64,000 nt of DNA from an uncultured Myxococcales bacterium. Lineage in GTDB: Bacteria > Myxococcota_A > Polyangia > Fen-1088. The stretch's first letter is position 1; every line of letters starts with the position of its first letter. This document shows, piece by piece, positions 1,955-63,849 of the stretch. Under the pieces are notes generated by a model. That model worked only from the letters and a program-made list of their open reading frames with translations, did not search any database and was not told the origin of the DNA. The stretch is from assembly GCA_964443975.1 (NCBI GenBank), contig CAYUFS010000015.1, positions 11,711 through 75,710 on the forward strand. Direction: 5' to 3'. The translations under genes and the position numbers were made by a program.

Positions 1955-3862
1955 ATGATGCCAAGAAGAGGATTGAGTGTTTCCCTGGTAGGCCTCGTCA
2001 CGGGCGTGCTCGCGGCCGGCTGTACGGGGCAGATCGGATCCACGGGTGACCCAGGAAACGGCGCGACCGGGAGCACGGGCTCGGGCGCTGGTTCCGTGCA
2101 CCCGACTGGAGGTAGCGGTAGCGCGACGGGCAGCAGCAGCGGCGGGAAGGGTACGACCGGCAGCGGTAGCGGCGGAAACGGTCAGGTCGGCACCGGCAGC
2201 GGCGGGAACGGAACGACGGGAACTGCCAGTGGCGGGACAACGGGCTCGGGGAGCGGAGGCACGGGCGGCGTCATCGCCACCGGGCCGCGGGATCCCGGCC
2301 GCGTGACCATCCGCCGTCTGAACCGGGTCGAGTACAACAACACCGTGCGGGATCTGCTGGGGACGGCGCAGGCGCCCGCGACGATGTTCCCCGACGACGC
2401 GCCCGACCTCGTCTTCGACAACAACGGCGACCTCCAGACCGTGTCCCCGGTGCAGTTCAGCCTCTATCAGTCCGCGGCCGAGGCGCTCGCGGCCGAGGTC
2501 ATGACGGTCGGCTCGAAGCAGCGCGCGCAGATCGTCACCTGCGACCTCACGACGGGCGCGGCCTGCGCTCGCACGCTGATCACCAACCTCGGCCTCAAGG
2601 CCTTCCGGCGACCGCTCGCCACCACCGAGGTCGACACCTTCGTCGCTTTGATGGCGACGGCGGCCTCCGCCGGCGCCACCGCCGACGAGCAGTTCCGTAC
2701 GGTGCTCGAGGCCATGTTGGTCTCGCCGAATTTCCTCTTCCACGTCGAGCTGGATCCCACGCCCACCTCGCTGACGCCTCATCTCTTGAGCCCCTACGAG
2801 ATGGCCTCCCGCCTGTCGTACATGATCTACCGCAGCATGCCGGACCAGACGTTGTTCGACGCCGCGGCGGCTGGCTCCCTGGCGCAGCCCTCCGACGTCC
2901 AGGCCCAGCTTCAGCGTATGTTGGTCGACGCGAAGTCGGCATTCGCCAAGTCGTTCACCGACATGTGGCTCGGCCTCAGCGTCGTCGGCACCGAGACCTT
3001 CGACGCCACTTTGTTCCCGAGCTACAGCACCGCGCTCGGAACCTCGATGGGCCTCGAGGTCATGAACTTCTTCAACGAGTTCGTGCAAAAGAACAACCCG
3101 ATCTCGGAGTTGATGACCGCGAACTACTCGTACATCGACAATAACCTGGCCAAGCTCTACGGCGTCGCGAATGTCACCGGGACTGGCGTGGTCCGCACGA
3201 CCCTCAACAACCCCCAGCGCTCGGGCTTGCTGACGATGGCCGGGGTGCTGGCCGTGACCTCGTACCCCACGCGGACCTCTGTGGTGAAGCGCGGCGCGTA
3301 CGTGCTGAGTCAGCTGCTGTGCGCCCCGGTCCCCGCGCCCCCGGCCAATGTCCCGCCATTCCCGGAGGGGGCGATCACGGCGACCACCCAGAAGGAAATT
3401 CTGGCCCAGCACCGGACGATCCCCGCGTGCGCCACCTGCCACGACAGCATGGACAACATCGGCATCGCGATGGAGAACTACGACGCCATCGGCGCCTACC
3501 GGACCACGGAGGACGGGATGCCGGTCGACTCCTCCGGCATGTTCGCCGGCGCCATCGCGAGTCCCTCCGACCCGACCGGGGCGTCGAGCCCGAAGTTCAC
3601 CGGCGCCGTCCAGCTCGGGGCCGCGGTCGCCAACGACCCGCGGTTCCTGTCCTGCGTGGCGCAGAACGTGATGTCCTACGCGCTCGGCCGTACGCTGTCG
3701 CTCACGGGCGCGGCCACCGACCAGCCCTATCTCGCCGACATCATCGCGCCGCCGCAGACGGGCAGCGCGGGGGTCCGCGATGTCTTGATGAATGTCGTCG
3801 CCAGCGAAACGTTCCGCATGCGGCGCGGGGATCCGACTACTTCGACCGGAGGAACGCCATGA
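1955..3862 (+). CDS. DUF1592/DUF1588/DUF1585-type (Planctomycete-specific PSD/PSCyt domain) lipoprotein, pair 1
   Basis: Start MMPRRGLSVSLVGLVTGVLAAGC (lipobox) follows a GGGAGG RBS. A GSG-rich linker precedes conserved blocks RRLNRVEYNNTVRDLLG and a C-terminal CATCHDSMDNIG...YDAIGAYRT block. Stop overlaps the next start as ATGA. Confidence 0.85.
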   Translation: MMPRRGLSVSLVGLVTGVLAAGCTGQIGSTGDPGNGATGSTGSGAGSVHPTGGSGSATGSSSGGKGTTGSGSGGNGQVGTGSGGNGTTGTASGGTTGSGSGGTGGVIATGPRDPGRVTIRRLNRVEYNNTVRDLLGTAQAPATMFPDDAPDLVFDNNGDLQTVSPVQFSLYQSAAEALAAEVMTVGSKQRAQIVTCDLTTGAACARTLITNLGLKAFRRPLATTEVDTFVALMATAASAGATADEQFRTVLEAMLVSPNFLFHVELDPTPTSLTPHLLSPYEMASRLSYMIYRSMPDQTLFDAAAAGSLAQPSDVQAQLQRMLVDAKSAFAKSFTDMWLGLSVVGTETFDATLFPSYSTALGTSMGLEVMNFFNEFVQKNNPISELMTANYSYIDNNLAKLYGVANVTGTGVVRTTLNNPQRSGLLTMAGVLAVTSYPTRTSVVKRGAYVLSQLLCAPVPAPPANVPPFPEGAITATTQKEILAQHRTIPACATCHDSMDNIGIAMENYDAIGAYRTTEDGMPVDSSGMFAGAIASPSDPTGASSPKFTGAVQLGAAVANDPRFLSCVAQNVMSYALGRTLSLTGAATDQPYLADIIAPPQTGSAGVRDVLMNVVASETFRMRRGDPTTSTGGTP

Positions 3863-9862: not shown

Positions 9863-10063
9863 CTCCGACAGCCTCCGCAGGCATGTCGTCCCGTCCGGAT
9901 CGACTCGCGCAAACGTTGAAAGGCATCCACTCGGTCTCCTGCGCTATTCATAATGCGGACAGTTGCACAATCAAACGTCTGCGTGCCGGAAATTGTCCCC
10001 TGACGAGGCCGACCGGTGGGTCGGTGCAACCGACCGTTCTCCCCCCTGCTCCCTGAGGTCGAT

Positions 10064-11518
10064 ATGATGAAGCGAGATCTCCGATATTCGCGTCGCCGCT
10101 TTCTCAAGTCCGTCGGCGCAGGCGCGGCGTTGTTGCCGCTGTTGCAGTCGGACCGCAGCGATGCGGCCTGCCTCGTCACCGGCATCAAGCGAATGTATAT
10201 CGTGGCCTGGACGAACGGGATGTTGAGCAGCATCAACCAGTGGGCCACCGCCGGGGCAGATCCGAGCTCGTGGACCCTGGGGACGATGGGCTTCCAGGAT
10301 TCGCTGAAGCCGTACATGAGCGACCTCCTCTTGCTCAATGGCGTCGACTACAAATTCATCAAGGACATGCCCGGTTCGGGCGAGCGCACGGGTCACGCGG
10401 TGTTCCCCGGCATGCTCACGGGCGCCTATTATCAGACCCTCTCCTCGGGAACCAGCTCCGACCTCGCGGGCGGCCCTTCGGTTGATCAGTACATCGGATC
10501 CAACCTGGTGAACGGCGGCTACAAGGGCATTGCCAGCATCAACCAGGCGGCGTACGTCGTCAGCACCGGTCACCTCTCCTGGAAGGCCTCGGGCCAGGTG
10601 GTGCTTCCGAACCCCGATCCCGCCAGCGTGTTCAACCTCTACTTCAAGGGAGCGATGCCGGCTCCGAACCCAATGCCGACGGCGGACGCAGGGGCGCCGC
10701 CTCCCGTCGACAACACGAACGCGATCAAGAAGAGCATCCTGGACTCCGTCGTCAACGACCTGAATCGGTTCTCGAGCATCGTCGGTACCGCGGACAAGGC
10801 CAGCATCGATCAACACCTCACCGCCGTCAGAAACATCGAGACGCGCCTCGCGAACATGCAGATGGCAGGGGGCGGTTCGGACGCGGGTGTCTCCACGTCG
10901 ACGGGGAACGCGGCCTGCACCTTCCCGAGCGTGACCGCCGAGCCCACACCGGTCAACGCCACGGCTAACGTCCCAGCGATTGCGAAATTGCACATGGACA
11001 TCGGGGTGGCCGCCTTCGCCGCGGATTTGACCCGCGTCGCGGTCTTGCAAATCGGCGATCAGGGCTCGGCGAACCTGATCTTGACGTGGCTTGGATTCAA
11101 ATCGGGCGGGCCGCTTGCCTCGGACAACAACACCGGCGACACGAATGGGTTTCACGCCATCGCGCACGAGAACACCATGCGCAAGGTGACTTGCGATACC
11201 TGGTTCCAGAGCCAGCTGGCGTACCTGATCGGTCAGATGAAGGGCATCACGGACGCGAACAACAAATCGATGCTCGACAGCAGCGTCATCGTCGGCATGA
11301 ACAGCATGCGCACGGGCACCCACGAGACGACAGGTGTACCGGTGGTGATGGCGGGGAGCTGCGGCGGCTACTTCAAGACGGGCCGAAGTCTCGCGCTCCC
11401 GGCCGGGACGCCGAACAACGGTTTGCTGGTGGCGCTCTGCAACGCCATGGGAACCCCGACGACGACCTTCGGTCAGGCGAGCTACGGCGGCGAGTTGGCC
11501 GTCCTGAGGGGTCCCTGA
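10064..11518 (+). CDS. DUF1552 (HXXSHH-variant) family protein with Tat signal, pair 2
   Basis: MMKRDLRYSRRRFLKSVGAGAALLPLL is a Tat signal. A GAGGT RBS lies upstream. The motif is the HAIAHE variant. The whole protein aligns with the other two DUF1552 genes. Confidence 0.85.
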   Translation: MMKRDLRYSRRRFLKSVGAGAALLPLLQSDRSDAACLVTGIKRMYIVAWTNGMLSSINQWATAGADPSSWTLGTMGFQDSLKPYMSDLLLLNGVDYKFIKDMPGSGERTGHAVFPGMLTGAYYQTLSSGTSSDLAGGPSVDQYIGSNLVNGGYKGIASINQAAYVVSTGHLSWKASGQVVLPNPDPASVFNLYFKGAMPAPNPMPTADAGAPPPVDNTNAIKKSILDSVVNDLNRFSSIVGTADKASIDQHLTAVRNIETRLANMQMAGGGSDAGVSTSTGNAACTFPSVTAEPTPVNATANVPAIAKLHMDIGVAAFAADLTRVAVLQIGDQGSANLILTWLGFKSGGPLASDNNTGDTNGFHAIAHENTMRKVTCDTWFQSQLAYLIGQMKGITDANNKSMLDSSVIVGMNSMRTGTHETTGVPVVMAGSCGGYFKTGRSLALPAGTPNNGLLVALCNAMGTPTTTFGQASYGGELAVLRGP

Positions 11519-11561
11519 GATGTTCAAAGCGACGACAACGAGAGCGAACGGGAGAACACCG

Positions 11562-13511
11562 ATGAAAGCACGTGACGTGTGGCGGTCATCCTTCGTGATC
11601 GCGAGTCTGCTTTCGGCAGGCACCTTCGCGTCCTGCACGGCCTCCACCAGCTCGGTGGGCGGCTCCGGCGGCAACGGCCAGACAGCCTCCGGTGGTTCTG
11701 GCGGCGGCTCGAGCAACAATGGCAGCGGCGGGTCATCGTCGAACGGGACCGGGAACGGGTCCGGGAAGGCGAGCGGGGGCTCCGGGGCGGGGGCGGGACC
11801 GGGCTCGGGCACCGGCGGTGGAACGAGCACGACCGGCTCGGGCGGAACGGGCGGAGGAACCACCGCGGGCACGGGGGGCGCGCCGGGAACGGGCGGTGCT
11901 GTCGCTGTTGTCCCGATCGACGGCAGCAACCCGCCCGCTGAGGGCGCCGGCACGATGGTCATGCGGCGTCTGACCTACCGCGAATACGACCACATGCTGA
12001 ACGAGCTGTTCGGTGACCTCACGGCGCCCGCCGAGACGGGTGACTGGTCGCCTGATGCGCAGAACCCGCAGTACTTCGTGGTTCCCTCCAGCGTCGCCGA
12101 CCTCCAGGTCGACCTGTATGGCGCGACCGCGGACACCGTCGTCGATACGGCCCTCAGCGCGGTGACCGCCGGCAAGACCGCCGGCAAGTTCGCGATTCCG
12201 TGCAAGACCGCGCCGACCACCACGGCGGCGGAGACCACCTGCGCGACCCAGTTCATCACCACGTTTGGTCTGCCGGTGTACCGGCGGCCCGTGTCGGCCG
12301 CCGAGCAGACCGACCTGCTCGCGGTCTTCAGCAAGGTCCGGGCGCTCGGCCTCAGCTTCAACGCCTCCCTGGGCGCGATCGCGAAGGCCATGATTCAATC
12401 GCCGAACTTCCTCTACCACTGGGAGATCGGTCCGACGAAGCCAGTGGTCGGCTCCGATGGTCTGGCGCCGCTGACCCAGTGGCAGATCGCTTCCCGGCTC
12501 GCTTCGGCGCTCTGGGAGACCATGCCGGACGATACGTTGTTGCAGGCGGCCCAGGCCGGGCAGTTGAACACCCCGGCGGCTGTGTCGACACAGGTCACGA
12601 GGATGCTGGCCGACGCGCGCGCGGCCAACGGCCTGTTCACGTTTCACGAGCAGTGGCTGTTCAACTTCGGAAGCCAGGGGCGCGATCTGACGAGCCCCCT
12701 CAACAGGGCCAACACGAAGTTCACCGCGGGTGCTGCGGGCGCCCTCCCGACGGAGTTCGCGCAGTTCATCGCGTCCGTCTACGGTTCCGGCGACGGAACG
12801 CTCCAGACGCTCTTCACGGCGCCTTACGCGTTCGTCAACGCGGACCTGGCCGCCATTTATGGAGTCACACCGCCGGCCAGCGGATTCGCGAAGGTCAACC
12901 TCGACCCGGCCCAGCGCGCGGGAATTCTCACCCAGACAGCCTTCCTGGCCACGATGGGCAACGACGCCGGCCGAGACAATCCGGTGTATCGCGGCATCAC
13001 CATCTACTTGAAGGTGCTGTGCGGGCAGGTGATGGACCCGCCGCCGAACGTGCCGCCGGTCCAGTTCATCATGAATGGGACCACCCGGCAGTCGTACGAC
13101 AAACACGGTTCCTCGGATTGCGCGAAGAGCTGCCACGGCCTGTTCGATCCCCCTGGATTCGCGTTCGAGAACTACGATGGTATCGGCGCATATCGAACGA
13201 CGGAGGCTACCCTGCCGGTGGACTCGACGGGCACCTTCCAGACGCCGGGCAATACCACCATCACCTTCAAGAACGCGGTGGACCTGGTCACCCAGCTCGC
13301 GCAGAGCAAGGAGACACAGACCTGCGTCGATCGGCAGTGGACGCGCTATTTGCTCGGCCGTGGCGAGACCGCCGCGGAGTCCGGCTCGATGAGCTTGGCG
13401 TTCCAGAAGGCAGCAGCCACGAACGGGTTCTCGCTGCGCGACATGCTGGCGACGCTCCTGACGTCCAAGGCGTTCATGTACCGCCAGCCGTCGCCGGGCG
13501 AGGCGCTCTAG
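11562..13511 (+). CDS. DUF1592/DUF1588-type PSD/PSCyt lipoprotein, pair 2
   Basis: MKARDVWRSSFVIASLLSAGTFASC follows a GGGAG RBS; an alternative ATG at 11520 is 1 nt after the upstream stop. A GSG linker precedes RRLTYREYDHMLNELFGDL and a C-terminal CAKSCHGLFDPPGFAFENYDGIGAYRT block. Confidence 0.85.
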   Translation: MKARDVWRSSFVIASLLSAGTFASCTASTSSVGGSGGNGQTASGGSGGGSSNNGSGGSSSNGTGNGSGKASGGSGAGAGPGSGTGGGTSTTGSGGTGGGTTAGTGGAPGTGGAVAVVPIDGSNPPAEGAGTMVMRRLTYREYDHMLNELFGDLTAPAETGDWSPDAQNPQYFVVPSSVADLQVDLYGATADTVVDTALSAVTAGKTAGKFAIPCKTAPTTTAAETTCATQFITTFGLPVYRRPVSAAEQTDLLAVFSKVRALGLSFNASLGAIAKAMIQSPNFLYHWEIGPTKPVVGSDGLAPLTQWQIASRLASALWETMPDDTLLQAAQAGQLNTPAAVSTQVTRMLADARAANGLFTFHEQWLFNFGSQGRDLTSPLNRANTKFTAGAAGALPTEFAQFIASVYGSGDGTLQTLFTAPYAFVNADLAAIYGVTPPASGFAKVNLDPAQRAGILTQTAFLATMGNDAGRDNPVYRGITIYLKVLCGQVMDPPPNVPPVQFIMNGTTRQSYDKHGSSDCAKSCHGLFDPPGFAFENYDGIGAYRTTEATLPVDSTGTFQTPGNTTITFKNAVDLVTQLAQSKETQTCVDRQWTRYLLGRGETAAESGSMSLAFQKAAATNGFSLRDMLATLLTSKAFMYRQPSPGEAL

Positions 13512-28640: not shown

Positions 28641-30077
28641 TCAGGCGGCGATATCGAGGCCGAGGAAGTTTCCGCAAGCCGGCTCGGCGCCGAACCCGGC
28701 GGACGGGAGGCCCATGACGTTTTGAATCGTGCAGCCCAGCCGCTGGTGGATCTGGGTGCCCACGTCGACCATGTAGCCAGTCTTCTTCAGCTTGCCGGCG
28801 GCGCCCCCGAGAAACACGATCGGGTACCCGTTCGTTCCGTGGGGACCGGTGGCGAGCTCGTTGCCCCAGACGACCAGCGAATTGTCGAGCGCGTTCGTCC
28901 CGTTCGCCTGCGGGAACGTCGCCAGCCGCTTGCCGAGATCGGTGACCAACTGCGAGTAGTACTTCGCCACGCCCGTGCACAGGTCGCCCGCCGTGCTCTG
29001 TCCCCCCTTGTCCGCGTGCGCCGCCTGATCGTGAAAGTCGGCCGGCATGTTGGGGAGGTTCAGCCACTGATAGTGGAAGTGGCCGCCCCCGCGGCCGAAC
29101 TGGAAGGTCATCACGCCAACCAGGTTGCACGCGATGGCGTTGGCGATGAACTCCATGTAGAGGCGCATCAGGACGTCGGCGTTGGCTTCGTCGGCCTGAG
29201 CCTTCAGCGATACGCCCGTCATCGACGGTTTCACGCTGGCGCATGACGCTGGCGTCGCCGGCCCGCCCGAACCCATCGACGTGAACGCTCCGGAGAGGCG
29301 GTTTTCGAGATCCCGCACCGAGGTGAGGTGGGTGTCGACCTTCATGCGTTCGGTGGCCCCGAGCCGCCCCTGGAGCGCGGTCAGATCCAGGGCCACGGCG
29401 TCGAGGACGGATTTTCGCTGCGCCAGCCGAAGCGCGGCCGCCGCGTTCGCGCTGCCCGCCGTTCCCCCGGCGCCGGTGGTCGGCGTCGGCTGGATCGAGC
29501 CGAACAGCTTCGTGTAGAGCGCGTAGATGTCAGTCTCGCAAGGCACCTGGACCCCAGCGGTCGCACACGGCCAGGACGCGCGGCCGGCGTTGATGAGGCT
29601 GTGGTTCTCGGCGATGACGCCGCAGTGAATGGTCTTGAACGGGTTCGTGAACGGTATCTGCTTGGCCAGGATCTGGTCGACCGAGGGGCCGCCGCCCGCC
29701 GGCGCCCCCATCGAAATGTTGTCGACGCCGGAGTAGAGGCCATGCCAGCCCCAGTCGTGACCATTCCCCTGGGGCGAGCCTTTCTTGTTCAGGTTCACCC
29801 CCTTGATCAGCGTGACCTTCTGTCCGACGGAGGGCTCGGACAGCATGTTGAACAGAATCGGCGAGGTGTTGGCCAGGGTCGGCGAGGGCCACGTGGTCGC
29901 GGTGGGCCAGAAGCTCTCCTGATGCGTGCCGTTCGTTTGCATCAGCAAGACCAAGTTGGGCCTGGTCGCCGCGGTTTGCGCGAACGCATGCTTGAGGAAC
30001 GACGGGACCAGCAAGGTGGAGCCCGCGGCGCGCATCAGGGTCCGGCGGGAGAACTGGAAATTGGTGGAGGAGCTCAT
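28641..30077 (-). CDS. DUF1552 (HXXSHH-variant) family protein with Tat signal, pair 3
   Basis: SRRTLMRAAGSTLLVP is a Tat motif. The HDQAAHADKGG variant is present. The start overlaps the upstream stop (ATGA). Confidence 0.85.
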   Translation of the reverse strand: MSSSTNFQFSRRTLMRAAGSTLLVPSFLKHAFAQTAATRPNLVLLMQTNGTHQESFWPTATTWPSPTLANTSPILFNMLSEPSVGQKVTLIKGVNLNKKGSPQGNGHDWGWHGLYSGVDNISMGAPAGGGPSVDQILAKQIPFTNPFKTIHCGVIAENHSLINAGRASWPCATAGVQVPCETDIYALYTKLFGSIQPTPTTGAGGTAGSANAAAALRLAQRKSVLDAVALDLTALQGRLGATERMKVDTHLTSVRDLENRLSGAFTSMGSGGPATPASCASVKPSMTGVSLKAQADEANADVLMRLYMEFIANAIACNLVGVMTFQFGRGGGHFHYQWLNLPNMPADFHDQAAHADKGGQSTAGDLCTGVAKYYSQLVTDLGKRLATFPQANGTNALDNSLVVWGNELATGPHGTNGYPIVFLGGAAGKLKKTGYMVDVGTQIHQRLGCTIQNVMGLPSAGFGAEPACGNFLGLDIAA

Positions 30078-31909
30078 CGGTCATCCTTCCTGGTCACGAA
30101 GGTTGTGTGAGTCACGGACGTGAGGACGAGATCCTTCACGTGGCCTCCCCCTTGCGAAAAGGAGGCGCCCCAGTCCTTGGACACGCACTTGTCGGCGTCC
30201 TCCACGGGCCTCGCCTGGGCGAAGCTGAAGAAGTGCTCCGCCATGCAAGCCTCCAGCAGCTTGCTCTGCGAGAGCATGTCGGCCAGCTGGGCGGGCCCTT
30301 CGAACGGGCCGTCGACGTTCGAGCCATCCGCTGCCGCGGTGCTGGTCAGCTGACCGGTGGAATCGACCACCTGACCGTTCTCCATCGTCCGGAAGCGCCC
30401 GATGCCGTCCATCTGTTCGAATCCGAATCCGATCGGGTCGAACGAATTGTGGCAGGCAGCGCAAGACACGTCATCGAGGTGGATCTTCTCCAGCTTCTGC
30501 CGCGTCGTGGTCGTGGCGTCGTTGGAATCCAGCGGGTTGTTGTTGGCGATGCGACTGACCACGTCCGGTGGCGGAGCGGGGATGTACTGACAGAGCAGCT
30601 GCCGTCGCACGAGGAGACCACGTTCGACCGGCCCGGAGTGATTGGCCCCCGAATGGACGGTCAAGACCGCCGGCAACGACAGGATGCCCTTCCGGTGTTT
30701 CGGATCGAGGCCCGACTGGAGCAGGTCGGCGCCGTAAATCGACGCGAGCGCCGTGGGGACGTTCGTGCTGGTTCCCGTCATGAAGGAGGAGACGGTTCCG
30801 TCACCGCCATTGAGCTGGGTCTTTACGAACTGGTCGAACTCCTGCTGCATCGCGGTCAGGATGGTCGGCGTCAGCGTGGGGAACACGCTGGTGTCCTTCA
30901 GCGTGTCGGCGAGCGGGGTCATGTCCATCCAGCCGCCGATGAACCGCGCCAGCGTATCCTGGGCGGGGGCCGTCGCGAGCAGGCGTTGTGCCTGGGTCAA
31001 GATGTCGTTCGGGTTCGTGAAGCCCGTCGCCTGGGCGGCCGCCAGGAGGGTGTCGTCGGGGCGGCCTCCCGTCAGCAGCAGCGACAGCTGGGAGGCGATC
31101 TCGTACTGGGTCAACGCGATGGGCTTTCCCGGGTTCGCCGGAGCCGCCGGGTCGCCGAGCTCGCTGACGTACAAGGTGTTCGGAGACTGCAGCACCAGCT
31201 CGACGACCAGGCGCACCGAGGTGGCGTAGTCCTGGCCCATGTTCGCCACGGTGCTGATGCGGGTGAATTCGTCGTCGGCGAGCGGCCGGCCGTACGCCTT
31301 GCTGGCGAAGGAGCGAATGAAGGTCTGCAGGCACGTCGCCGAGCCGGCCGCCGTGGCGCAGGGAGCGAGGGTCGTAGGATTGGCCTGGCTGGCGAGGCTG
31401 GCGGCGAGATCGGAGGTGTCCTCCTGCATCGACGACAGCGACCAGGGGGCCTGGTTTCCTTGATTGTCGAAGCCGGTCACGAGGTTGTCCGCCGGGAGGG
31501 CGGTGGTGACCGCCGTGCGGGCCGTCGGTCCAAGGAGGTTGGCGACGACGTTCGTGTATTCCCGGATGGTCAAGGGCCTGAGACGGCGGCTGGTGAGACC
31601 GTCGCACGCGGCCACCGTGCCGGTGCCCGCGCCCGCGCCCGTGACGCCACCGCTGGCGCCGCCGCCGATGGTGAGACCGGCGCCGCCGCCGCCGCTATTC
31701 GCGCCGCCTGAGCCGCTCCCCCCGATCTTGGCACCTCCCGTGCCCCCCGAACCTGTCGTGGAGGTGTTACCCCCGGACGAGGTGGCGCCCGACCCAGCGC
31801 CGCTACCCGTGCCGGCCGCAGGCCCGCCCACGGTGCCCGTGCATCCCCCGAGCAGCAGCCCGAAGAGCGTGAAACCACGGAGCAAAGTACCTGTCGGGAG
31901 TGGTCTCAT
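30074..31909 (-). CDS. DUF1592/DUF1588-type PSD/PSCyt lipoprotein, pair 3
   Basis: MRPLPTGTLLRGFTLFGLLLGGC follows GAGGT. A GSG linker precedes RPLTIREYTNVVANLLGP and a C-terminal CAACHNSFDPIGFGFEQMDGIGRFRT block. The track ORF is 5' over-extended. Confidence 0.85.
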   Translation of the reverse strand: MRPLPTGTLLRGFTLFGLLLGGCTGTVGGPAAGTGSGAGSGATSSGGNTSTTGSGGTGGAKIGGSGSGGANSGGGGAGLTIGGGASGGVTGAGAGTGTVAACDGLTSRRLRPLTIREYTNVVANLLGPTARTAVTTALPADNLVTGFDNQGNQAPWSLSSMQEDTSDLAASLASQANPTTLAPCATAAGSATCLQTFIRSFASKAYGRPLADDEFTRISTVANMGQDYATSVRLVVELVLQSPNTLYVSELGDPAAPANPGKPIALTQYEIASQLSLLLTGGRPDDTLLAAAQATGFTNPNDILTQAQRLLATAPAQDTLARFIGGWMDMTPLADTLKDTSVFPTLTPTILTAMQQEFDQFVKTQLNGGDGTVSSFMTGTSTNVPTALASIYGADLLQSGLDPKHRKGILSLPAVLTVHSGANHSGPVERGLLVRRQLLCQYIPAPPPDVVSRIANNNPLDSNDATTTTRQKLEKIHLDDVSCAACHNSFDPIGFGFEQMDGIGRFRTMENGQVVDSTGQLTSTAAADGSNVDGPFEGPAQLADMLSQSKLLEACMAEHFFSFAQARPVEDADKCVSKDWGASFSQGGGHVKDLVLTSVTHTTFVTRKDDR

Positions 31910-32322
31910 TTGGTAACCTCGGCCCCAGGGGGAGCGTGGTGAGGGTTGTGACCGCCGTAACATTGGTCGCCACCAAATGGGGCCTGGGTCACGATTTCGG
32001 ATGCTAACGGTATTCGCGTGAATCTCTTTTCTCCGGAAGCTGCGCCGCGACGGGGGCGGGCCGCGTAACATCCTTGATTTGCTGGCTATTTATGCAGCGG
32101 GCGAACGGACGAGGGTGCGATGGAGGAGAAAGACCGACAGACGGCGTCGCAATCGACCTGGGAGAGCGGCGGTCGGCAGGCGGGTGCCAAGGGAGGGAGG
32201 GGCGGACAGGGGGACGCGACTTGTGGCGGGCGGGCCTCGCGGCTAAGGTCTCGGCTCGTTTCGGTCCGCTGATTCGTCTCGTCGTACCGAGATTCCTTCC
32301 CTCCTCGCTCCCAGGAGATCGC

Positions 32323-55132: not shown

Positions 55133-56533
55133 TCAACCCTTGTTCGGGCGCGGGATCTGGTAGCGCTCCAGCTTGGCCACGAACGTTCGTCGCGGCATCC
55201 CCATCAGCTTGGCCGCGCGGCTTTGATTTCCGGCGCACGCGGCGAGGGCGTCGAGCATGCGCTGACGCTCGTCGCCGGGGATGGGCGTCGACTCGCGGAC
55301 GCCGCTGCTGTCGTTGCCCCGGGCGCGCAGCGTATGCTCCGCCGACACGCCCGCGGGGGCAGCCGGGGCCCGTCGCTCCTCGGGCAGGTGCTCGAGGCCG
55401 ATCGCGCTACCGGCGCACAGCAGCACAGCGCGCTCGATGACGTTCTTCAGCTCGCGGACGTTGCCGGGCCAGTCCCGGGACTCCAGCGCCTTCAACACCT
55501 CGGCCGACAGCACCGGGGCTGACCGGCCTAGCTCGCGGCAGATGTCGCGCAGGAACGTCTCCGCGAGCGGGCGGATCTCGGACCGCCGCTCGCGAAGCGG
55601 CGGGATTCGAATCGAGATGCCATTCAGGCGGAAGTAGAGGTCGGCTCGAAAGGCATGCCGTTGCACCTCCTTCTCCAGATCGCGATTGGTCGCCGCGATG
55701 AAGCGGACGTCGACCCGCCTGGGGCGCACGCTGCCGAGCCGTGTGACCTCGCGCGTCTCGATGACTCGTAGCAGCTTGACCTGGGTCGACGGCGACATCT
55801 CGCCGACCTCGTCCAGGAACAGCGTGCCCCCTTCGGCGGCTTCCAGCAGCCCCACCTTTGCAGCGCCGGCGCCCGTGAAGGCCCCCTTCTCGTGACCAAA
55901 GAGCTCGCTCTCGAGCAGCGACTCCGACAGGGCGGCGCAGTTGAGGCAGATGGACGGACCCGACCGCCGGGGCGATAGCTGGTGGATGGTCTTGGCCATC
56001 ACCTCCTTGCCCACGCCCGTCTCGCCCAGGATGAGGACGTTGATCGTCCCGGCGGCGGCACGTTCCGCCACGGCGTAAATCGCCTTCATCGAATTGTCGT
56101 GCTCCAGCGTCACCGCCGCCAGGTTGGCCTCCGTGTACGTGGGGCCATCCATCGCACCTTGAGCGGCTCGCTCGGTGGACTGCTGGGACCGGACATGAAC
56201 GATGAGGACCGACGACCCGATGGCGATGGTTTCCCCGGATTGAACGGGCACGCGCTCGCCCCGCGCAATGGGCCGGTCTCGAACGCGCGTCCCGTTGATG
56301 CTGCCGAGATCCTCGACGAACAAGGTATCGCCGATGGTCAACCGGGCGTGTGACCGCGAGGCCTGCAGGTCGTCAATCCGCACGTCGGCCGATTCGGCGC
56401 GCCCGATGGTCACGGTGCCCACCGTCGGTAGGTTGTAGGTCTCGTACGACCCGTTTCCAATCACCAGCAGACGGACCCCGGGCCGGTCACCCCATACGAC
56501 TGGATCGCCTGGAATCGTGGTCCGTTGTTTCAC
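55133..56533 (-). CDS. FHA-domain sigma-54-dependent transcriptional activator (FHA + AAA+ + Fis-type HTH)
   Basis: FHA: VRLLVIGNGSYETYNLPTVGTVTIGRAESADVRIDDLQASRSHARL. AAA+: GETGVGKEVMAKTIH and ESELFGHEKGAFTGA (GAFTGA intact). C-terminal HTH. The start is uncertain (a GTG at 56533 is proposed; no in-frame ATG lies near). Confidence 0.8.
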   Translation of the reverse strand: MKQRTTIPGDPVVWGDRPGVRLLVIGNGSYETYNLPTVGTVTIGRAESADVRIDDLQASRSHARLTIGDTLFVEDLGSINGTRVRDRPIARGERVPVQSGETIAIGSSVLIVHVRSQQSTERAAQGAMDGPTYTEANLAAVTLEHDNSMKAIYAVAERAAAGTINVLILGETGVGKEVMAKTIHQLSPRRSGPSICLNCAALSESLLESELFGHEKGAFTGAGAAKVGLLEAAEGGTLFLDEVGEMSPSTQVKLLRVIETREVTRLGSVRPRRVDVRFIAATNRDLEKEVQRHAFRADLYFRLNGISIRIPPLRERRSEIRPLAETFLRDICRELGRSAPVLSAEVLKALESRDWPGNVRELKNVIERAVLLCAGSAIGLEHLPEERRAPAAPAGVSAEHTLRARGNDSSGVRESTPIPGDERQRMLDALAACAGNQSRAAKLMGMPRRTFVAKLERYQIPRPNKG

Positions 56534-56800
56534 GCATGCCTTCGCAAGAGGAGATCGCGTAACCGCGATGATGCTAGGCCGCCAGGCGTCGTTCCCGCAA
56601 GCACCATTGCGCAACGTGCGCGCGGCTGCACAACCTGTGCAGCGCAACGCGGGCGGCAGCCAGGCCGCCGAGGTTCGCGGTCGCAGGCCATACGAGGCAG
56701 GCCCGATGGCTGCGGGCCTTTTCAGCCACGCGGCCGGCCCGTCCCTTGGAACGTGTCTTGCTGCTAGGCGGCCGGTCTGCACAAAAGAGGAGAATCGCGC

Positions 56801-57934
56801 ATGACGGCATCCCACGCTCAATCGCATCTGGAACCGGAGAACGACTTCGACGAGGCCAGCGAATACCTGGACGAGCTTCGCAACGACCACCTGGGGCTGG
56901 TCGGGGGGTCTCCTGCCATGGTCGCGCTTCGCGACCTAATCCGGCGGGTCGCCCGGTCGGAGCGACCGATCCTCATCTCGGGGCCAGAGGGCGCCGGGAA
57001 GTCGCTGGTCGCGCTCGCGATCCAGCGCCTGGGCGCCGTGGGCGGAGCCTCCGGCCGACTGGTGTTCGCGAACTGCGCCGAGCTCGCCGAGAAGGAGCTG
57101 GAGGCGATGCTCTTTGGGGCCCCGGGGCGGCCCGCGGCGCTCTCGCCAGGGGACACCGTGGCGCTCGACGATGTGGACCGTCTTCCGCCGTCGATTCAGG
57201 CGAAGTTGGTGCGGGCGTTTCAGGTCGGGGCGTCGGCGGGTGGACAGGCCGCGGCCCGTGGGGGCGCGCCGCAGCCGCGAGCCTTGCCTCGTATTCTGGC
57301 GTTGACGAACCATTCTCTGTCCCGGGCCGTCCGCGAGAACACCTTCCGCGCGGACCTGCTGTACGAGCTGGCGGTCCTCACGGTGCCGGTGCCTGGTCTG
57401 GACGAGCACAGGAGCGACATTCCCGCCCTGGTCAATCACGTCCTCAGGCTCGGGCAGAGCTCGATCCGCTTCTCGTCCGATGCACTCGACTTCCTGGGTG
57501 CGCGCGGCTGGCCGGGCGGCGTGCGCGAGCTGCGCAGCGTGGTCGAGCGCGCGGTTTCGCTCTGCCGGGAGCCTAGTGTCAGCGCGGAGCTCCTTCGTCG
57601 GCTGGTGGCGCCGGAGCCCCTCGAGACCAATATCAATCACTCCCTTCAGGCGCTGGCGGAGCGGCTGCTCAGGCTGCCGGTCCGCAACAAGCTGGCGGCG
57701 GTGGAGGAAGCGCTGCTGGCGATGGCGATGGAGACGTGCTTTGGAAACAAGAGCGCGGCAGCTCGGATGCTGGGCTTACATCGCAAGGCCGTCGAGCGGA
57801 AGCTGGAAAAGTACGACGTCCGGTTCGCGCGGGCGCCCATGCGGGCGGGCGAAACCGCCATTGGAGAGATAGGGGCAACCGCCGCGCCCAGCGGCACGTT
57901 TCGGTCCTCGGCGACAGGTCACTTTCCAGGCTGA
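56801..57934 (+). CDS. Sigma-54 activator-like AAA+ regulator lacking receiver domain and with degenerate GAFTGA loop, C-terminal Fis-type HTH
   Basis: Walker A GPEGAGKS, Walker B/arginine-finger-like blocks, and the HTH GNKSAAARMLGLHRKAVERKL. The GAFTGA position reads LFGAPGRPAALS. Confidence 0.7.
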   Translation: MTASHAQSHLEPENDFDEASEYLDELRNDHLGLVGGSPAMVALRDLIRRVARSERPILISGPEGAGKSLVALAIQRLGAVGGASGRLVFANCAELAEKELEAMLFGAPGRPAALSPGDTVALDDVDRLPPSIQAKLVRAFQVGASAGGQAAARGGAPQPRALPRILALTNHSLSRAVRENTFRADLLYELAVLTVPVPGLDEHRSDIPALVNHVLRLGQSSIRFSSDALDFLGARGWPGGVRELRSVVERAVSLCREPSVSAELLRRLVAPEPLETNINHSLQALAERLLRLPVRNKLAAVEEALLAMAMETCFGNKSAAARMLGLHRKAVERKLEKYDVRFARAPMRAGETAIGEIGATAAPSGTFRSSATGHFPG

Positions 57935-58016
57935 CCGAAGCCCATGCGGTCCGCCGTTCCGGCGGTGGGCCCTGCGATGTGCTAGCGTTTGCGGGTTTCC
58001 GGAAGGAGGCCTCGCG

Positions 58017-58169
58017 ATGAGATGGGAACAGCCTGAGCTCGTGGAAATCGGAATGAACGCGGAAATCGGCGGCTATCAGTCGGACTTCGACGGCACCGAC
58101 GCCCCGGGACCGCGACGCCCCACCGGGGAATCCTCGGACGACAAAACCGGAACGCGCTCCGGTTCGTGA
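58017..58169 (+). CDS. pqqA: Candidate PQQ precursor peptide PqqA (50 aa, extended C-terminus)
   Basis: Not in the ORF track (below its length cut-off). A GGAGG RBS lies 7 nt upstream. MRWEQPELVEIGMNAEIGGYQSDFDG... has W3, P6 and the E-x-x-x-Y pair (E16/Y20) with PqqA-like spacing. It ends 79 nt before pqqB. Confidence 0.6.
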   Translation: MRWEQPELVEIGMNAEIGGYQSDFDGTDAPGPRRPTGESSDDKTGTRSGS

Positions 58170-58248
58170 TATCGAAAGCCACCCATCGGAACCCAGGGTC
58201 GCACGGGCGCCCCGTCGGTCACTGACGGGACGAAAAGCCGAGGTTGCG

Positions 58249-59175
58249 TTGAGGGTTCGCGTGCTCGGCTCCGCCGCTGGAGGGGGGGCTCCGCAGTGGA
58301 ACTGTGGGTGCGCCAATTGCCAGGGACTTCGTAGCGGCGCGATCCGGGCGACCGCGCGCCGCCAGGAGTCCGTCGCGGTGAGCCCGTCGGGCGAGTCGTG
58401 GTTGGTGCTGAACGCGTCGCCCGAGATTCGGGCGCAGGTCGAGAGTTTCTCGGGGCTGTGGCCCAAGCGCCCGCGCCACTCCCCGATTGCCGGGATCGTG
58501 CTGACGAACGGCGACCTGGATCATGTGCTCGGATTGCTCTCGCTTCGCGAGTCCCATCCCCTCACGGTGTTTGCGACTGAGAGTGTGCGTCGGGGATTCA
58601 CCGAGGGGAACGTGCTTTATCGAACGCTGCAACGCTTCGAGGGGCAGGTGACCTGGCGGGCCCTCCACCTGGGACAGGAGATCGAGGCGTTCGAGGAGCA
58701 GGGCGCACGCGTGACCCTGGTCCCGTTCGCGGTCCCCGGCAAGCGGCCCATCCATCTCGAGGGGCCTGGGGCGCCTGCGCCGAGCGACGAGGACAATATT
58801 GCCCTGGTCGTGACGGCCCGCAGGGGGCAGGACCGGCGGGCGCTGGGGTACGTGCCCGCGGCGGCCGCATGGACGTCCGAAATGGAGGAGCGGCTCTCCC
58901 CGCTCGACGCCGTGTTCTTCGACGGGACGTTCTGGTCCAGCGACGAGCTGGTCGCCGCCGGTCTGGGGACGAAGCGAGCGGAGGACATGGCGCACCTGCC
59001 GGTTGGGGGAGCGGGGGGCGGACTGTCGCACCTCGAGAAATTGCGGGCGCGCCGGCGCATCTTGATCCACATCAACAACACCAACCCGATCCTTCGCGAG
59101 GACTCGTCCGAGCGTGCGCAGGTCGCAGCGGCAGGGGTGGAGATCGCGCACGACGACATGGAGATCCTGCTTTGA
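58249..59175 (+). CDS. pqqB: Coenzyme PQQ synthesis protein B (metallo-beta-lactamase fold)
   Basis: MRVRVLGSAAGGGAPQWNCGCANC matches the PqqB N-terminus. The start codon is TTG with a GAGGT RBS. Confidence 0.9.
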   Translation: MRVRVLGSAAGGGAPQWNCGCANCQGLRSGAIRATARRQESVAVSPSGESWLVLNASPEIRAQVESFSGLWPKRPRHSPIAGIVLTNGDLDHVLGLLSLRESHPLTVFATESVRRGFTEGNVLYRTLQRFEGQVTWRALHLGQEIEAFEEQGARVTLVPFAVPGKRPIHLEGPGAPAPSDEDNIALVVTARRGQDRRALGYVPAAAAWTSEMEERLSPLDAVFFDGTFWSSDELVAAGLGTKRAEDMAHLPVGGAGGGLSHLEKLRARRRILIHINNTNPILREDSSERAQVAAAGVEIAHDDMEILL

Positions 59176-59930
59176 GTGAGCGACCAGCGACCGGCACGAG
59201 CGCGTACTCCTACGGAGCCGACATCGCCGCGCCCTCGCTGTTGGCGCCCGATGCCTTCGTCGAGCGCCTGCGCAGCGAGGGGGCGTCCCGCTACCACGAT
59301 CAGCATCCGTTCCACCTGGCGATGCACGAGGGCCGGCTGTCGCGCGCCGATCTACAGCGCTGGGTGCTGAATCGTTACTACTATCAAACGCGGATCCCCA
59401 TCAAGGACGCGCTGATCCTCTCGAAGAGCGAGGACCCCGCGTTTCGGCGCGCCTGGATTCGAAGGATTCACGATCACGACGGCGTGGCGGAAGGCGAGGG
59501 CGGCCTCGCCGAGTGGCTTCGGTTGGCCGTGGCGGTCGGGCTGGACCCCGATGACGTGGAGAGCTGTCGCCTGGTGCATCCGGGCGTTCGCTTCGCTTGC
59601 GACACGTACGTCACGCTGGTCCGCGACAGCCGCCTGGTGGTCGCGGTCGCGTCGTCCCTGACGGAGTTCTTCGCGCCCGACCTGATGGCGCGCCGGATCG
59701 AGGCATGGGAGCGGCACTATCCGTTCGTCGACGCGGCGGGGCTGGCGTACTTCCGGGCCCGCGTGCCGCGGGCGCGCCGCGACTCGGAGGAGGCGGTGGC
59801 GTTCGTGGTGGCCGGGGCGCACACGCGCGAGGTGCAGGACGCGTGCGTGGCCGCGCTGGTGCGCAAGACCCAGATCCTGTGGCACCTGCTCGATTGTGTC
59901 GCCGCCGGGGCCGGCGGCGGCGGGCCGTGA
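59172..59930 (+). CDS. pqqC: Pyrroloquinoline-quinone synthase PqqC
   Basis: HPFHLAMHEGRLSRADLQRWVLNRYYYQTRIPIKDALILSKSEDP is the PqqC signature. A probable TTG start overlaps the pqqB stop. The track ORF 58869..59930 is over-extended. Confidence 0.85.
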   Translation: MSERPATGTSAYSYGADIAAPSLLAPDAFVERLRSEGASRYHDQHPFHLAMHEGRLSRADLQRWVLNRYYYQTRIPIKDALILSKSEDPAFRRAWIRRIHDHDGVAEGEGGLAEWLRLAVAVGLDPDDVESCRLVHPGVRFACDTYVTLVRDSRLVVAVASSLTEFFAPDLMARRIEAWERHYPFVDAAGLAYFRARVPRARRDSEEAVAFVVAGAHTREVQDACVAALVRKTQILWHLLDCVAAGAGGGGP

Positions 59931-61387
59931 CCGGGATCCCGGGCGCGGGGCGTCCGCGCCTCGCCGCCGGGGTTCGGCTGCGCCTCGATCACCTGTCGGG
60001 AAAGCACCTCTTGCTCCGCCCCGAGCGGGGGTTCGAGCTGAAGGGGGCAGCCCTCGAGATCGTGCGATCGTTCGGGGGGACGCCCACCGTCGACGGCATC
60101 ATCGACCACCTGGCTGCGTCGCATGCCGACGTCGCCCGCGCCCAGATCGCCGCCGACGTCCTCCGGTTGCTGGAGGAATTGCGGACGCGAGGGTTGATCG
60201 AGCTCGACGAGCCTGGCTGGAACCGCGGCGGCGACACGGGGTGGAGCGAGCCCACGCCCATCGACCGGCGGCCCCATTCCGCGACGAATGAGCCGCGACC
60301 CTACACCCTGGTCGCGGAGCTGACCTATCGCTGCCCGCTGCGCTGCGCGTATTGCTCCAACCCCATTCGCCTCGACACGCTGGGCCCCGAGCTGGACACG
60401 GCGACCTGGGCGCGCGTGTTCGAGGAGGCCGAGGCCCTCGGCGTCATGCAGGTCACGCTGACCGGCGGCGAGCCGCTCGTGCGCGCCGACCTCGAGGCGA
60501 TCGTCGCGGCGGCACGCGCACGCGATCTCTACACGACGCTCATCACCAGCGGCGTCCCGCTCGATCGCGAGCGGCTCGCCGGTCTGCGCGCGCGCGGGCT
60601 CGATGGCCTCCAGCTGTCGATTCAGGACACGGACGGCGAGGCCGCCGCGCGCATCGCGGGAATAGACGCCATGGCCCAGAAGGCGGCCGTGGCGGGCTGG
60701 GCGCGCGCGCTCGGATTGCCGCTGACGTTGAACGTGGTCTTGCACCGCGCGAACCTGCCCCGCCTCGCGTCCTTCATCACCCTCGCCGAAGCTTGGGGAG
60801 CCGAGCGCCTGGAGCTGGCGCACGTGCAGTACCTCGGCTGGGCGCTGGCGAACCGGGCGGCGCTGCTGCCGACGGCCACCATGATCGCCGAGGCACGCGC
60901 CGAGGTGACGCGCGCGCGTGAACGCCTGGGGCGGCGGATGGAGATCCTCGCGGTGCTGCCGGACTACTTCGCCGACCAGCCGCGCGGCTGCATGGAGGGT
61001 TGGGGGCGCCGCTACGTGGTCGTGGCGCCCGACGGCCGCGCGCTGCCGTGCCACGCCGCGCACACGCTACCGGGGCTCAGCTTCGACTCCGTCACCACGC
61101 GCGCGCTCGCCGACATCTGGACCAACTCGGATGCCTTCAGGCGGTTTCGTGGCGAGGCCTGGATGCCAGAGCCGTGCCGAAGCTGCGAACGGCGCACGCT
61201 CGATTTCGGCGGTTGCCGCTGCCAGGCGTACCACCTGACGGGCGACGCAACCGCGACGGATCCCGCGTGCGCCCTCGCCCCGCGCCACGATCTCGTGGTG
61301 GCCGCGCGCGACGACGCCGAGGCCCGCGCCGCGTCTGACACGGGCGCGCGCACGCTTCAACTTCGCCGTCCTCCTGCCTCCGGCTGA
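59927..61387 (+). CDS. pqqE: PqqD-PqqE fusion: peptide chaperone domain fused to radical-SAM/SPASM enzyme
   Basis: GTG start overlapping the pqqC stop (GTGA). The PqqD-like block is PRLAAGVRLRLDHLSGKHLLLRPERGFELKGAALEIVRSFGGTPTVDGII. The radical-SAM region has CPLRCAYC (Cx3Cx2C) and C-terminal SPASM cysteines. There is no stop between the two domains. Confidence 0.85.
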   Translation: MTGIPGAGRPRLAAGVRLRLDHLSGKHLLLRPERGFELKGAALEIVRSFGGTPTVDGIIDHLAASHADVARAQIAADVLRLLEELRTRGLIELDEPGWNRGGDTGWSEPTPIDRRPHSATNEPRPYTLVAELTYRCPLRCAYCSNPIRLDTLGPELDTATWARVFEEAEALGVMQVTLTGGEPLVRADLEAIVAAARARDLYTTLITSGVPLDRERLAGLRARGLDGLQLSIQDTDGEAAARIAGIDAMAQKAAVAGWARALGLPLTLNVVLHRANLPRLASFITLAEAWGAERLELAHVQYLGWALANRAALLPTATMIAEARAEVTRARERLGRRMEILAVLPDYFADQPRGCMEGWGRRYVVVAPDGRALPCHAAHTLPGLSFDSVTTRALADIWTNSDAFRRFRGEAWMPEPCRSCERRTLDFGGCRCQAYHLTGDATATDPACALAPRHDLVVAARDDAEARAASDTGARTLQLRRPPASG

Positions 61388-62406: not shown

Positions 62407-63849
62407 TCAGGCCGGCTCGCCTTCGGCGTCGAGGACCACGGGCGCCGGCAAGCCCAGCGCCCGCAGCTCCGGCTCGATGGTGGCGCGGTCGCCGACCACG
62501 ACGATGCCGAGCCGGTCGGGGTCGAGATAGCGGGCGGCCGCTTGCTTCATGTCGTCGGCGGTGGTGGCGGCGACCGCGGCGATGAACCGCGCCGGCTCGT
62601 CTGCGGGCAGCCCATAGAGCCCCATGTCCGCGAACGTGCCCGCCACGCCCGACGCCGTCGACAGCGCCTCGGCCGTGCGATCGAGCAGGGTGGCGCGGGC
62701 CTTCGTCATCTCGGCGTCGCCCACGTCATCGGTGCGCATGCGCCCGATCTCCTCGAGCGCGTCCGTTATGGCGGCGCCGGTCACCTGAGTGAACACGGAG
62801 GTGCGCACGGTGAACGACGACGGACGCCGGAACGCGCTGAACCCCGAGCTCGCGCCGTAGGTGTAGCCCTTCTTCTCGCGCAGCGTGAAGTTCAGGCGAC
62901 TGGTGAACGTGCCGCCGAGGACGACGTTCAGCATCTGCACGGCAGGGCGATCGGGGGCGAGGCGCGACGAGCCCGGGCCCACCATCCGAAGGACGCTCTG
63001 GGGCGCCCCCGGTCGGTCGACCATCACGAGGCGTGGCAGCGACGGGAGGCGGGGCGTCGGCGCGGTGACGGGCAGCGGCGCGGGGCGCCATCTGGAGAAC
63101 GCGCGTTCGAGCTCCTCCGCCAGCGTCGCCGGCTCGAAGTCCCCCGCCAGCGTGACGACGGCGTTGTTCGGGCGCCAGAACCTGTCGTGGAACGCGCGCA
63201 CGTCATCCAGGGCCAGCGCGCCGATGGTGGCTTCCAGGCCGTCCACCGGACGCCCATAAGGATGGGTCGGCCCGTAGAGCGCCAGGGCGGTGATCAAGTC
63301 CGCGACCGACTCGGGCTGATCGCGCCGCTGCTGCAACGCCGTCAGGCGGTCGTGGTGCACCCGCTCCCAGTCCGCGACCTCGAAGCGCGGTCGCAGCACG
63401 ATGTCGGTCGCGATCTCCAGCGCCTGCGAAAACTCCTCGCTCGGGACCTGGAGGTTCAACTGCGCGCCGTCGCGTCCCGCGCCGACCCAGAGGTCGGCGC
63501 CGAGCCGCTCCAGCGACTCGGCGATCTCCAGCGCCGTGCGAGGGCCCGCGCCCTCGTCCATCATCTCGGCGGTCAGCGACGCGAGGCCCGTCTGCCCGGG
63601 AGGATCTTGATCCGCGCCGGTGCGGATGACCAGGTTCAACGCCACGATCGGCGCTGCCCGTCGCCGAACCGCCACCACCTCCATGCCGTTCGATAGCACG
63701 AACGAGATGGGTTGGGGCATGACGAGCGCGGGGAACGGCCCCACGACCGGGCGGTGCGCCATGTACGGCGGCGAGGTCACGGGGACAGGCTGGGCCGCCC
63801 GCGCTTCACCGCCGCCGTCCGCCGCGCCGTCGCGCACCGGCCCGCTCAC
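62407..63849 (-). CDS. M16-family (pitrilysin-like) peptidase homologue, probably the non-catalytic subunit
   Basis: M16 fold blocks are present. The zinc-site position reads GLASLTAEMMDEG rather than HxxEH. The GTG start overlaps the stop of the upstream gene (GTGA). Confidence 0.7.
   Translation of the reverse strand: MSGPVRDGAADGGGEARAAQPVPVTSPPYMAHRPVVGPFPALVMPQPISFVLSNGMEVVAVRRRAAPIVALNLVIRTGADQDPPGQTGLASLTAEMMDEGAGPRTALEIAESLERLGADLWVGAGRDGAQLNLQVPSEEFSQALEIATDIVLRPRFEVADWERVHHDRLTALQQRRDQPESVADLITALALYGPTHPYGRPVDGLEATIGALALDDVRAFHDRFWRPNNAVVTLAGDFEPATLAEELERAFSRWRPAPLPVTAPTPRLPSLPRLVMVDRPGAPQSVLRMVGPGSSRLAPDRPAVQMLNVVLGGTFTSRLNFTLREKKGYTYGASSGFSAFRRPSSFTVRTSVFTQVTGAAITDALEEIGRMRTDDVGDAEMTKARATLLDRTAEALSTASGVAGTFADMGLYGLPADEPARFIAAVAATTADDMKQAAARYLDPDRLGIVVVGDRATIEPELRALGLPAPVVLDAEGEPA

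Follow-up and report, generated by a model that had tools for sequence, protein, structure and literature searches.

PqqA, the precursor peptide of the redox cofactor pyrroloquinoline quinone (PQQ), has been described as about 23 amino acids (aa) in length (PMC3531188); characterised PqqAs measure 23, 24 and 29 aa, the longest form, of 39 aa, being a possible alternative reading in P. fluorescens (PMC2294125). In the 29-aa PqqA of Methylorubrum extorquens the reactive residues are Glu16 and Tyr20, and the peptide binds PqqD by its leader and touches the barrel of PqqE with its C-terminal region (PMC10906245). Here we describe a pqq locus within a stretch of 64,000 nucleotides (nt) from an uncultured bacterium of the Polyangia (Myxococcota), hereafter referred to as the window (assembly GCA_964443975.1, contig CAYUFS010000015.1, positions 11,711 to 75,710), in which a small open reading frame (ORF) at 58017..58169, lying 5' of pqqB, is very probably a genuine PqqA precursor gene. 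The peptide it encodes, MRWEQPELVEIGMNAEIGGYQSDFDGTDAPGPRRPTGESSDDKTGTRSGS (50 aa), carries the M-x-W-x-x-P leader (Trp3 and Pro6) and reads E16-I-G-G-Y20 at the E-x-x-x-Y motif, the motif from which every atom of PQQ is derived, with 30 residues following Tyr20, and so exceeds the usual PqqA length of 23-39 aa, length being a descriptive trait of these peptides and not a defining one. As far as can be read from the sequence, the locus appears to be a complete pqqA-B-C-(D-E) operon with a conserved pqqA, and the peptide appears to belong to a divergent, long-tailed PqqA subfamily which lies below the reach of the curated models, its tail being longer than that of any PqqA studied.

The pqqA of M. 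extorquens AM1, like that of the window, is the first gene of its pqq operon, and its product has the M-x-W-x-x-P leader with Glu16 and Tyr20 at identical positions; it differs in having 9 residues after Tyr where the window peptide, 21 residues longer, has 30. The core of M. extorquens PqqA reads VGMEVTSYE, compared with MNAEIGGYQ in the window, and the Tyr is followed by an acidic stretch, ESAEIDTFN, compared with QSDFDGTDA. The PqqAs of Klebsiella pneumoniae, Pseudomonas and Acinetobacter (23-24 aa) likewise share the W..P...E-x-x-x-Y pattern and the position 5' of pqqB, but they have 4 residues after Tyr, whereas the window peptide has 30 and falls below the cut-offs of PF08042 and TIGR02107. 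The enzymes are also arranged differently, as PqqD is fused to PqqC in M. extorquens (PMC10906245) and to PqqE in the window.

The identification of the window peptide as PqqA is made on the grounds of its synteny with pqqB, pqqC and pqqD-pqqE, the conservation of the locus among relatives, homology at the level of the family and the register of Glu16 and Tyr20. The enzymes encoded downstream fit the PQQ equivalogs and not paralogous radical SAM systems, with NCBIfam scores (bits, score/cut-off) of 362.4/245 for TIGR02108, 284.9/240 for TIGR02111, 52.7/46 for TIGR03859 and 469.9/381 for TIGR02109; the last two, which represent PqqD and PqqE (4.7e-141 for the latter), are matched in one uninterrupted frame, and the public call for this fused gene is likewise 486 aa long, with PqqD, Radical_SAM and SPASM domains. 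No second pqqA candidate was seen 5' of pqqB. An earlier note on this DNA had proposed that a small ORF with a GGAGG ribosome binding site upstream of pqqB was pqqA, that it had a hydrophilic tail of about 30 aa after the Tyr, and that its Trp, Pro and Glu/Tyr were in register with known PqqAs. These proposals were borne out: an AGGAGG lies 7 nt before the ATG, pqqB begins 79 nt downstream, the tail is exactly 30 residues long and its distal part is free of hydrophobic residues, and Glu16/Tyr20 fall as in M. extorquens (PMC10906245).

A number of results nevertheless count against the identification. The full-length peptide gave no match to Pfam or NCBIfam, and its first 26 aa, although aligning in register with PF08042, scored 12.3 bits (E=0.2), below the cut-off of 21.1. 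No PQQ-dependent dehydrogenase came to light in a scan of 23 larger ORFs from the window, and the M16 peptidase encoded nearby does not qualify as a PqqF equivalog. An hhalign comparison of the subfamily with canonical PqqA gave a probability of 96.3%, the W, P, E and Y of the two falling together; the result is taken as supporting evidence only. As direct assignment by hidden Markov model (HMM) had failed, homology was worked out at the level of the family: 38 of 60 diverse subfamily members match PF08042 and 32 match TIGR02107 (counted at E<=1, the best E being ~3e-5), and families other than PqqA do not recur among the matches of these 60. One Polyangia relative reached 18.9 bits against a curated PqqA cut-off of 20, the cut-off of these models being an annotation rule tuned on peptides of ~23 aa and not a biological criterion. 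Similarity to PqqA HMMs, which the earlier note had named as a check, was thus lacking for the single peptide and present for the family. Glu and Tyr are invariant in three alignments of the subfamily (A1, A2 and A4).

That the ORF is not pqqA, and instead either arose by chance in GC-rich intergenic DNA or encodes the precursor of another RiPP (a peptide synthesised on the ribosome and modified after translation), would agree with the lack of a full-length match and with the public names of the relatives, all of which read 'hypothetical protein'. This explanation is hardly credible, however, and is already contradicted by the data, as the ratio of non-synonymous to synonymous differences (pN/pS, from Nei-Gojobori counts over 13 locus pairs) is 0.045 over codons 1-24, the pqqBCDE genes follow in all 22 of the loci described below, the family-level matches are to PqqA models only, the W, P, E and Y line up with those of canonical PqqA, and the downstream enzymes are PQQ equivalogs preceded by no other pqqA candidate.

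A word-indexed search returned seven peptides of 50-55 aa, and a profile search of 1.84 billion representatives returned 336 clusters at E<=0.001 (50% identity), with a broader profile giving 874 clusters at 90% identity. The core of the subfamily is M-x-W-E-x-P-x-F-V-E-I-x-M-[N/D/S]-A-E-I-G-x-Y-Q-x-D-F, in which Pro6, Met13, Glu16 and Tyr20 never vary and at least 90% of 60 diverse members keep Trp3. A scan for the corresponding DNA pattern, carried out on one genome per species and independent of gene calling, yielded 22 loci, all of them in metagenome-assembled genomes (MAGs) of the Polyangia/Myxococcales; in each of the 22 an ORF whose product is 44-53 aa long and has its Tyr at residue 20 lies directly 5' of pqqB, and pqqB-C-D-E follow as far as the contigs extend, an agreement well beyond chance. 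The closest relative (L001/L003) encodes a peptide which is 74% identical, and has the two sigma-54 activators upstream and the M16 peptidase downstream in common with the window.

The number of residues after the Tyr ranges from 7 to 77 among 117 subfamily representatives, with a median of 30 which is also the value in the window. The distribution is bimodal, in that 17 representatives have tails of 5-15 aa and 70 have tails of 25-40 aa, although peptides of less than 30 aa are seldom reported by gene callers and the short-tailed forms are therefore under-counted. Short-tailed members of 27-32 aa (L030, L037, L038 and L040) are also found 5' of pqqBCDE, with a leader and MNAEIGxYQxDF core nearly identical to those of the window and the same gene context. 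The extension which the earlier note had described as atypical is indeed so when compared with characterised PqqAs of 23-39 aa, but not within the subfamily; the conserved ORF that it suggested looking for in related myxobacterial pqq loci is present in all 22. On these comparisons the long follower is characteristic of the subfamily as a whole and not a peculiarity of the window locus. Two further candidates were set aside: P0052, a 730-aa repeat protein (a low-complexity/repeat match), and P0162, which matched through a tandem MNSEIGGLRSD repeat. In the latter protein (103 aa) five tandem MNSEIG/FGxLRSD repeats precede a hydrophobic C-terminus, the repeat fitting the MNAEIGGYQSD core of the profile without the Tyr.

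The gene had also been thought to be missed by length cut-offs. This proved incorrect: the exact window peptide is already among the gene calls of public collections (NCBI, JGI, ENA and Logan; 14 contigs), its relatives have been called too, and what is missing is the name. Samples in which the contig occurs come from peat and rhizosphere. The gene has been called and its function missed. All named relatives, including the NCBI entries from Polyangia MAGs, are labelled 'hypothetical protein', and a precomputed Pfam domain is recorded for none of them. The label arises because the curated models of PqqA, trained on peptides of ~23 aa, score them below threshold. Within the cluster of the window peptide there is also a public call of 38 aa (P0009), the length of which fits a start at Met13 with loss of the leader; it is a gene-calling variant of the same gene. 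None of the papers searched links pqqA with Myxococcota or describes long PqqAs.

A more detailed picture of the tail emerges when its segments are considered separately. The pN/pS is 0.53 over the whole tail and 0.785 after residue 35, but the closest pairs show purifying selection in the distal part (0.24 for L009/L010 and 0.40 for L012/L015). Gly31, Pro32 and Pro35 are invariant in the alignment of close homologues (A1), and Pro32 is invariant in all 23 Polyangia sequences. In the distal part the frame stays open through in-frame indels, and the C-terminal ends are kept within subclades (L022/23/24 and L012/15/19). The length of the tail in Polyangia is 20-29 codons beyond Tyr+4, compared with 0-361 codons in the other two frames from the same point; its composition in the ORF frame is 20% acidic and 11% basic, compared with 0.3-6% acidic and 24-32% basic in the other two frames; and GC by codon position is coding-like in core and tail alike. 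From these signals of frame, length, composition and codon usage it follows that the tail is very probably translated. The proximal tail is under real constraint and the distal tail under compositional constraint at most, conservation being confined to the first 12-15 residues.

A scheme for the maturation of the peptide can be proposed in which the leader, comprising Trp3, Pro6 and a hydrophobic run, E-L-V-E-I, would dock on the PqqD domain, here tethered to PqqE, Glu16 and Tyr20 would be cross-linked by PqqE, the cross-linked pair would be excised by peptidases and PQQ would be completed by PqqB and PqqC, the 30-residue C-terminal follower being thrown away in the process. The chemistry of this scheme is taken from the characterised pathway (PMC10906245, PMC2294125), whilst what is read from the sequence is the presence of the gene, how far it is conserved and the operon in which it lies. 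We tentatively add to it that residues 21-35 (QSDF..D.[DE]P.GP..P) may extend the contact with PqqE or serve trimming, and that residues 36-50, in which composition, frame and approximate length are kept and the sequence is not, may form a disordered acidic spacer without a sequence-specific role; the chances of this division of roles being right seem to us to fall somewhat short of even. Two further points have to be set beside the results already counted on the opposing side, namely that the near-neutral evolution of the distal tail makes a sequence-specific role there unlikely, and that the basis for a role of residues 21-35 is confined to conservation and the analogy with M. extorquens. 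Taken as a whole, the explanation combining PqqA identity with these roles, in which identity carries most weight, is considered likely. A parallel is found in the bottromycin precursor, a RiPP with a C-terminal follower, where the stretch past the modified core is also translated and later removed; in bottromycin, however, recognition depends on the follower in place of a leader, whereas the window peptide retains a normal leader.

There is the possibility that the tail has no function at all. As stop codons are rare in a genome of 68% GC, an ancestral stop shortly after the Tyr could have been lost and the read-through tolerated, since the flanks of the Glu-Tyr pair are degraded anyway. The pN/pS of the distal tail, the span of 7-77 aa within the subfamily, the 27-aa members in the same pqqBCDE context and the fact that characterised PqqAs work with 4-9 residues after Tyr (lengths from PMC2294125) would all fit such a history. 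It would leave unexplained, however, why residues 25-35 are conserved with Pro32 invariant in the 23 Polyangia sequences, why the length in Polyangia is so tight in comparison with the other frames, why the lengths form two modes and not a geometric series, why the tail is acidic in the ORF frame only and why the distal part is under purifying selection in the closest pairs; for these reasons it is regarded as unlikely. At the other extreme, the long follower could be functionally required and mark a distinct mode of the PQQ pathway in a large unannotated clade (at least 336 clusters at 50% identity), which we consider improbable. This could come about by either of two routes: the proximal [DE]-P-x-G-P motif could offer PqqE, PqqB or a trimming peptidase dedicated to the task a second element to recognise, or the PqqA:PqqB ratio could be fixed by the extended ORF through termination-reinitiation at pqqB starts of TTG or GTG that have no Shine-Dalgarno (SD) sequence. 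The reinitiation route, if true, would replace the control at the level of mRNA which is assumed for proteobacterial operons.

It is also conceivable that the tail matters as an ORF and not as a peptide, bringing terminating ribosomes to pqqB so that reinitiation there occurs at a fixed low ratio to PqqA, the substrate being needed in excess, with the peptide tail itself a harmless, hydrophilic and disordered by-product. In 17 of 23 Polyangia loci, and in L031 and L034, the TTG or GTG start of pqqB lies only 5-21 nt past the pqqA stop, and in these 19 loci the mean predicted duplex of the pqqB start region with the anti-SD is -2.2 kcal/mol, which is virtually without an SD, compared with -5.05 kcal/mol in the 10 loci with a longer gap (Mann-Whitney p = 0.003, a value that overstates independence as the loci are phylogenetically related) and -7.0 kcal/mol for pqqA over all 29. 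The distance from the Tyr to pqqB is of much the same order in the two forms: four of five short-tailed loci have ~66-91 nt (the fifth, L032, has 191 nt), and for most of the long-tailed loci the figure is ~89-119 nt. The long ORF thus extends over a stretch which the short forms leave as untranslated spacer, the short-tailed members having a stop 7-12 residues past the Tyr, then 27-158 nt of untranslated spacer and a pqqB that mostly has an ATG start or some SD. This suggests that in the relatives pqqB is translationally coupled to a highly translated pqqA by termination-reinitiation, and the near-neutral sequence of the distal tail would be expected if the peptide were a by-product. The window itself, however, is unlike these short-gap relatives in having a gap of 79 nt and a GAGG of its own before the TTG of pqqB (predicted duplex -6.6 kcal/mol), and coupling therefore cannot explain its tail. 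Five other long-tailed loci have gaps of 39-85 nt, the pqqB starts in relatives were assigned from a conserved motif and not by experiment, and the conserved [DE]-P-x-G-P motif would be left unexplained. As an account of the tail, a role as an ORF is accordingly thought doubtful.

The finding does not overturn or challenge the known PQQ pathway. PQQ biosynthesis is usually inferred from the annotation of pqqA-E, and here a whole subfamily of the precursor, comprising the 874 clusters, every Polyangia genome examined and probably other soil phyla, is labelled 'hypothetical protein'; once this subfamily is recognised, calls of the PQQ pathway from myxobacterial and soil metagenomes would be made complete. 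The natural variants of the tail, with between 7 and more than 40 residues after the Tyr, would lend themselves to tests of what PqqD, PqqE and the trimming proteases recognise in PqqA, whilst the tight junctions between the pqqA stop and the pqqB start in the relatives suggest a way in which the ratio of substrate to enzyme may be fixed at translation. The features of the window locus are listed in Table 1.

Table 1. Features of the pqq locus and its immediate surroundings, with positions counted from the first letter of the window.
Feature	Position	Strand	Details
Sigma-54 enhancer-binding protein	55133-56890	-	divergent from the next
Sigma-54 enhancer-binding protein	56801-57934	+
Possible extended -10 element for pqqA	57980..57988	+	TGCTAGCGT (TGnTAnnnT); tentative, inference only
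Shine-Dalgarno sequence of pqqA	58005..58010	+	AGGAGG, 7 nt 5' of ATG
pqqA ORF	58017..58169	+	ATG start, TGA stop, 50 codons + stop; homologues of 44-55 aa found
Leader and core, residues 1-24	58017..58088	+	M-R-W-E-Q-P..., Trp3, Pro6; strongly conserved
Glu16 codon	58062-58064	+	reactive-pair position within residues 1-24
Tyr20 codon	58074-58076	+	reactive-pair position within residues 1-24
Proximal follower, residues 25-35	58089..58121	+	DGTDAPGPRRP; moderately conserved acidic/proline motif [DE]-P-x-G-P-x-x-P
Distal follower, residues 36-50	58122..58166	+	TGESSDDKTGTRSGS; fast-evolving, hydrophilic, no hydrophobic residues
pqqA-pqqB spacer	58170..58248	+	79 nt; small hairpin 58211-58229; GAGG SD of pqqB 58240-58243
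pqqB	58249..59175	+	308 aa, TTG start; TIGR02108 1.9e-108, residues 2-307 covered
pqqC	59172..59930	+	252 aa; TIGR02111 4.6e-85; boundaries from public gene call mapped onto window
Fused pqqD-pqqE	59927..61387	+	486 aa; RiPP recognition element/peptide-chaperone domain, then radical SAM/SPASM cross-linking enzyme
M16-family peptidase	62407..63849	-	Pfam M16 domains; SLTAEM at expected HxxEH zinc motif

The pqqA SD of the window, with a predicted anti-SD duplex of -11.7 kcal/mol, is the strongest of the 29 loci compared. No complete -35/-10 promoter for pqqA came out of a simple scan for sigma-70 sites; a TG(G/C)TAnnnT motif, to which the possible extended -10 element of Table 1 belongs, recurs 30-70 nt 5' of pqqA in the window, in L003-L010 and in L016. 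The presence of two sigma-54 activators upstream had raised the idea of a sigma-54 promoter, but this was rejected, as the sequence 5' of pqqA, in the window and in the relatives alike, showed no -24/-12 element (GG-N10-GC in a consensus-like context). A terminator or attenuator between pqqA and pqqB was likewise considered and rejected, the spacer, in spite of its 8-bp hairpin, folding no more stably than shuffled sequence (z = 0.74) and no terminator or T-tract being found there.

The JGI call places the start of pqqB at 58378 (265 aa), with the loss of the conserved N-terminal motif VLGSAAGGGxPQWNCGC encoded within 58249-58377; this start is too late, as the TTG at 58249 gives 308 aa with TIGR02108 matched from residue 2. 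The fusion of PqqD and PqqE is not shared by the closest relative (L001/L003), where they are encoded by separate, overlapping genes (102 and 368 aa), and a more distant locus of the subfamily, L038, has a PqqC-PqqD fusion instead. Two other apparent fusions, PqqA-PqqB (P0042, L035 5001-5465) and a 660-aa PqqB-PqqC (L031 6166-8148), are probably indel artefacts and were discounted, both being from long-read MAGs in which neighbouring genes such as valS are fragmented. In the short-tailed locus L038 a PQQ-dependent dehydrogenase of the GSDH type (1086-2869, - strand) and a cytochrome c adjoin pqqA, which fits a subfamily making PQQ for the cell's own use.

The two sigma-54 enhancer-binding proteins encoded just upstream of pqqA differ in domain content, an FHA domain being present in one and a receiver domain being absent from the other. 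Both are kept in the closest relative. Their longest ORFs overlap by ~90 nt, and the start of one of them has probably been over-called. The M16 protein downstream is probably a non-catalytic subunit, judging by its zinc motif, and was rejected as one of PqqF/G, the M16 peptidases by which PqqA is trimmed: its sole NCBIfam match is a weak one to YfmF, with none to PqqF, HxxEH is lacking and linkage to pqq was found only in L001/L003. In L001 two M16 genes lie side by side, and the partner in the window would fall beyond 63849, where it is truncated by the end of the window. Elsewhere in the window there are three paralogous DUF1592/DUF1588/DUF1595/DUF1585 proteins (1895-3862, + strand; 11520-13511, + strand; 30074-32071, - strand) and one DUF1552 (HXXSHH) protein (10016-11518, + strand).

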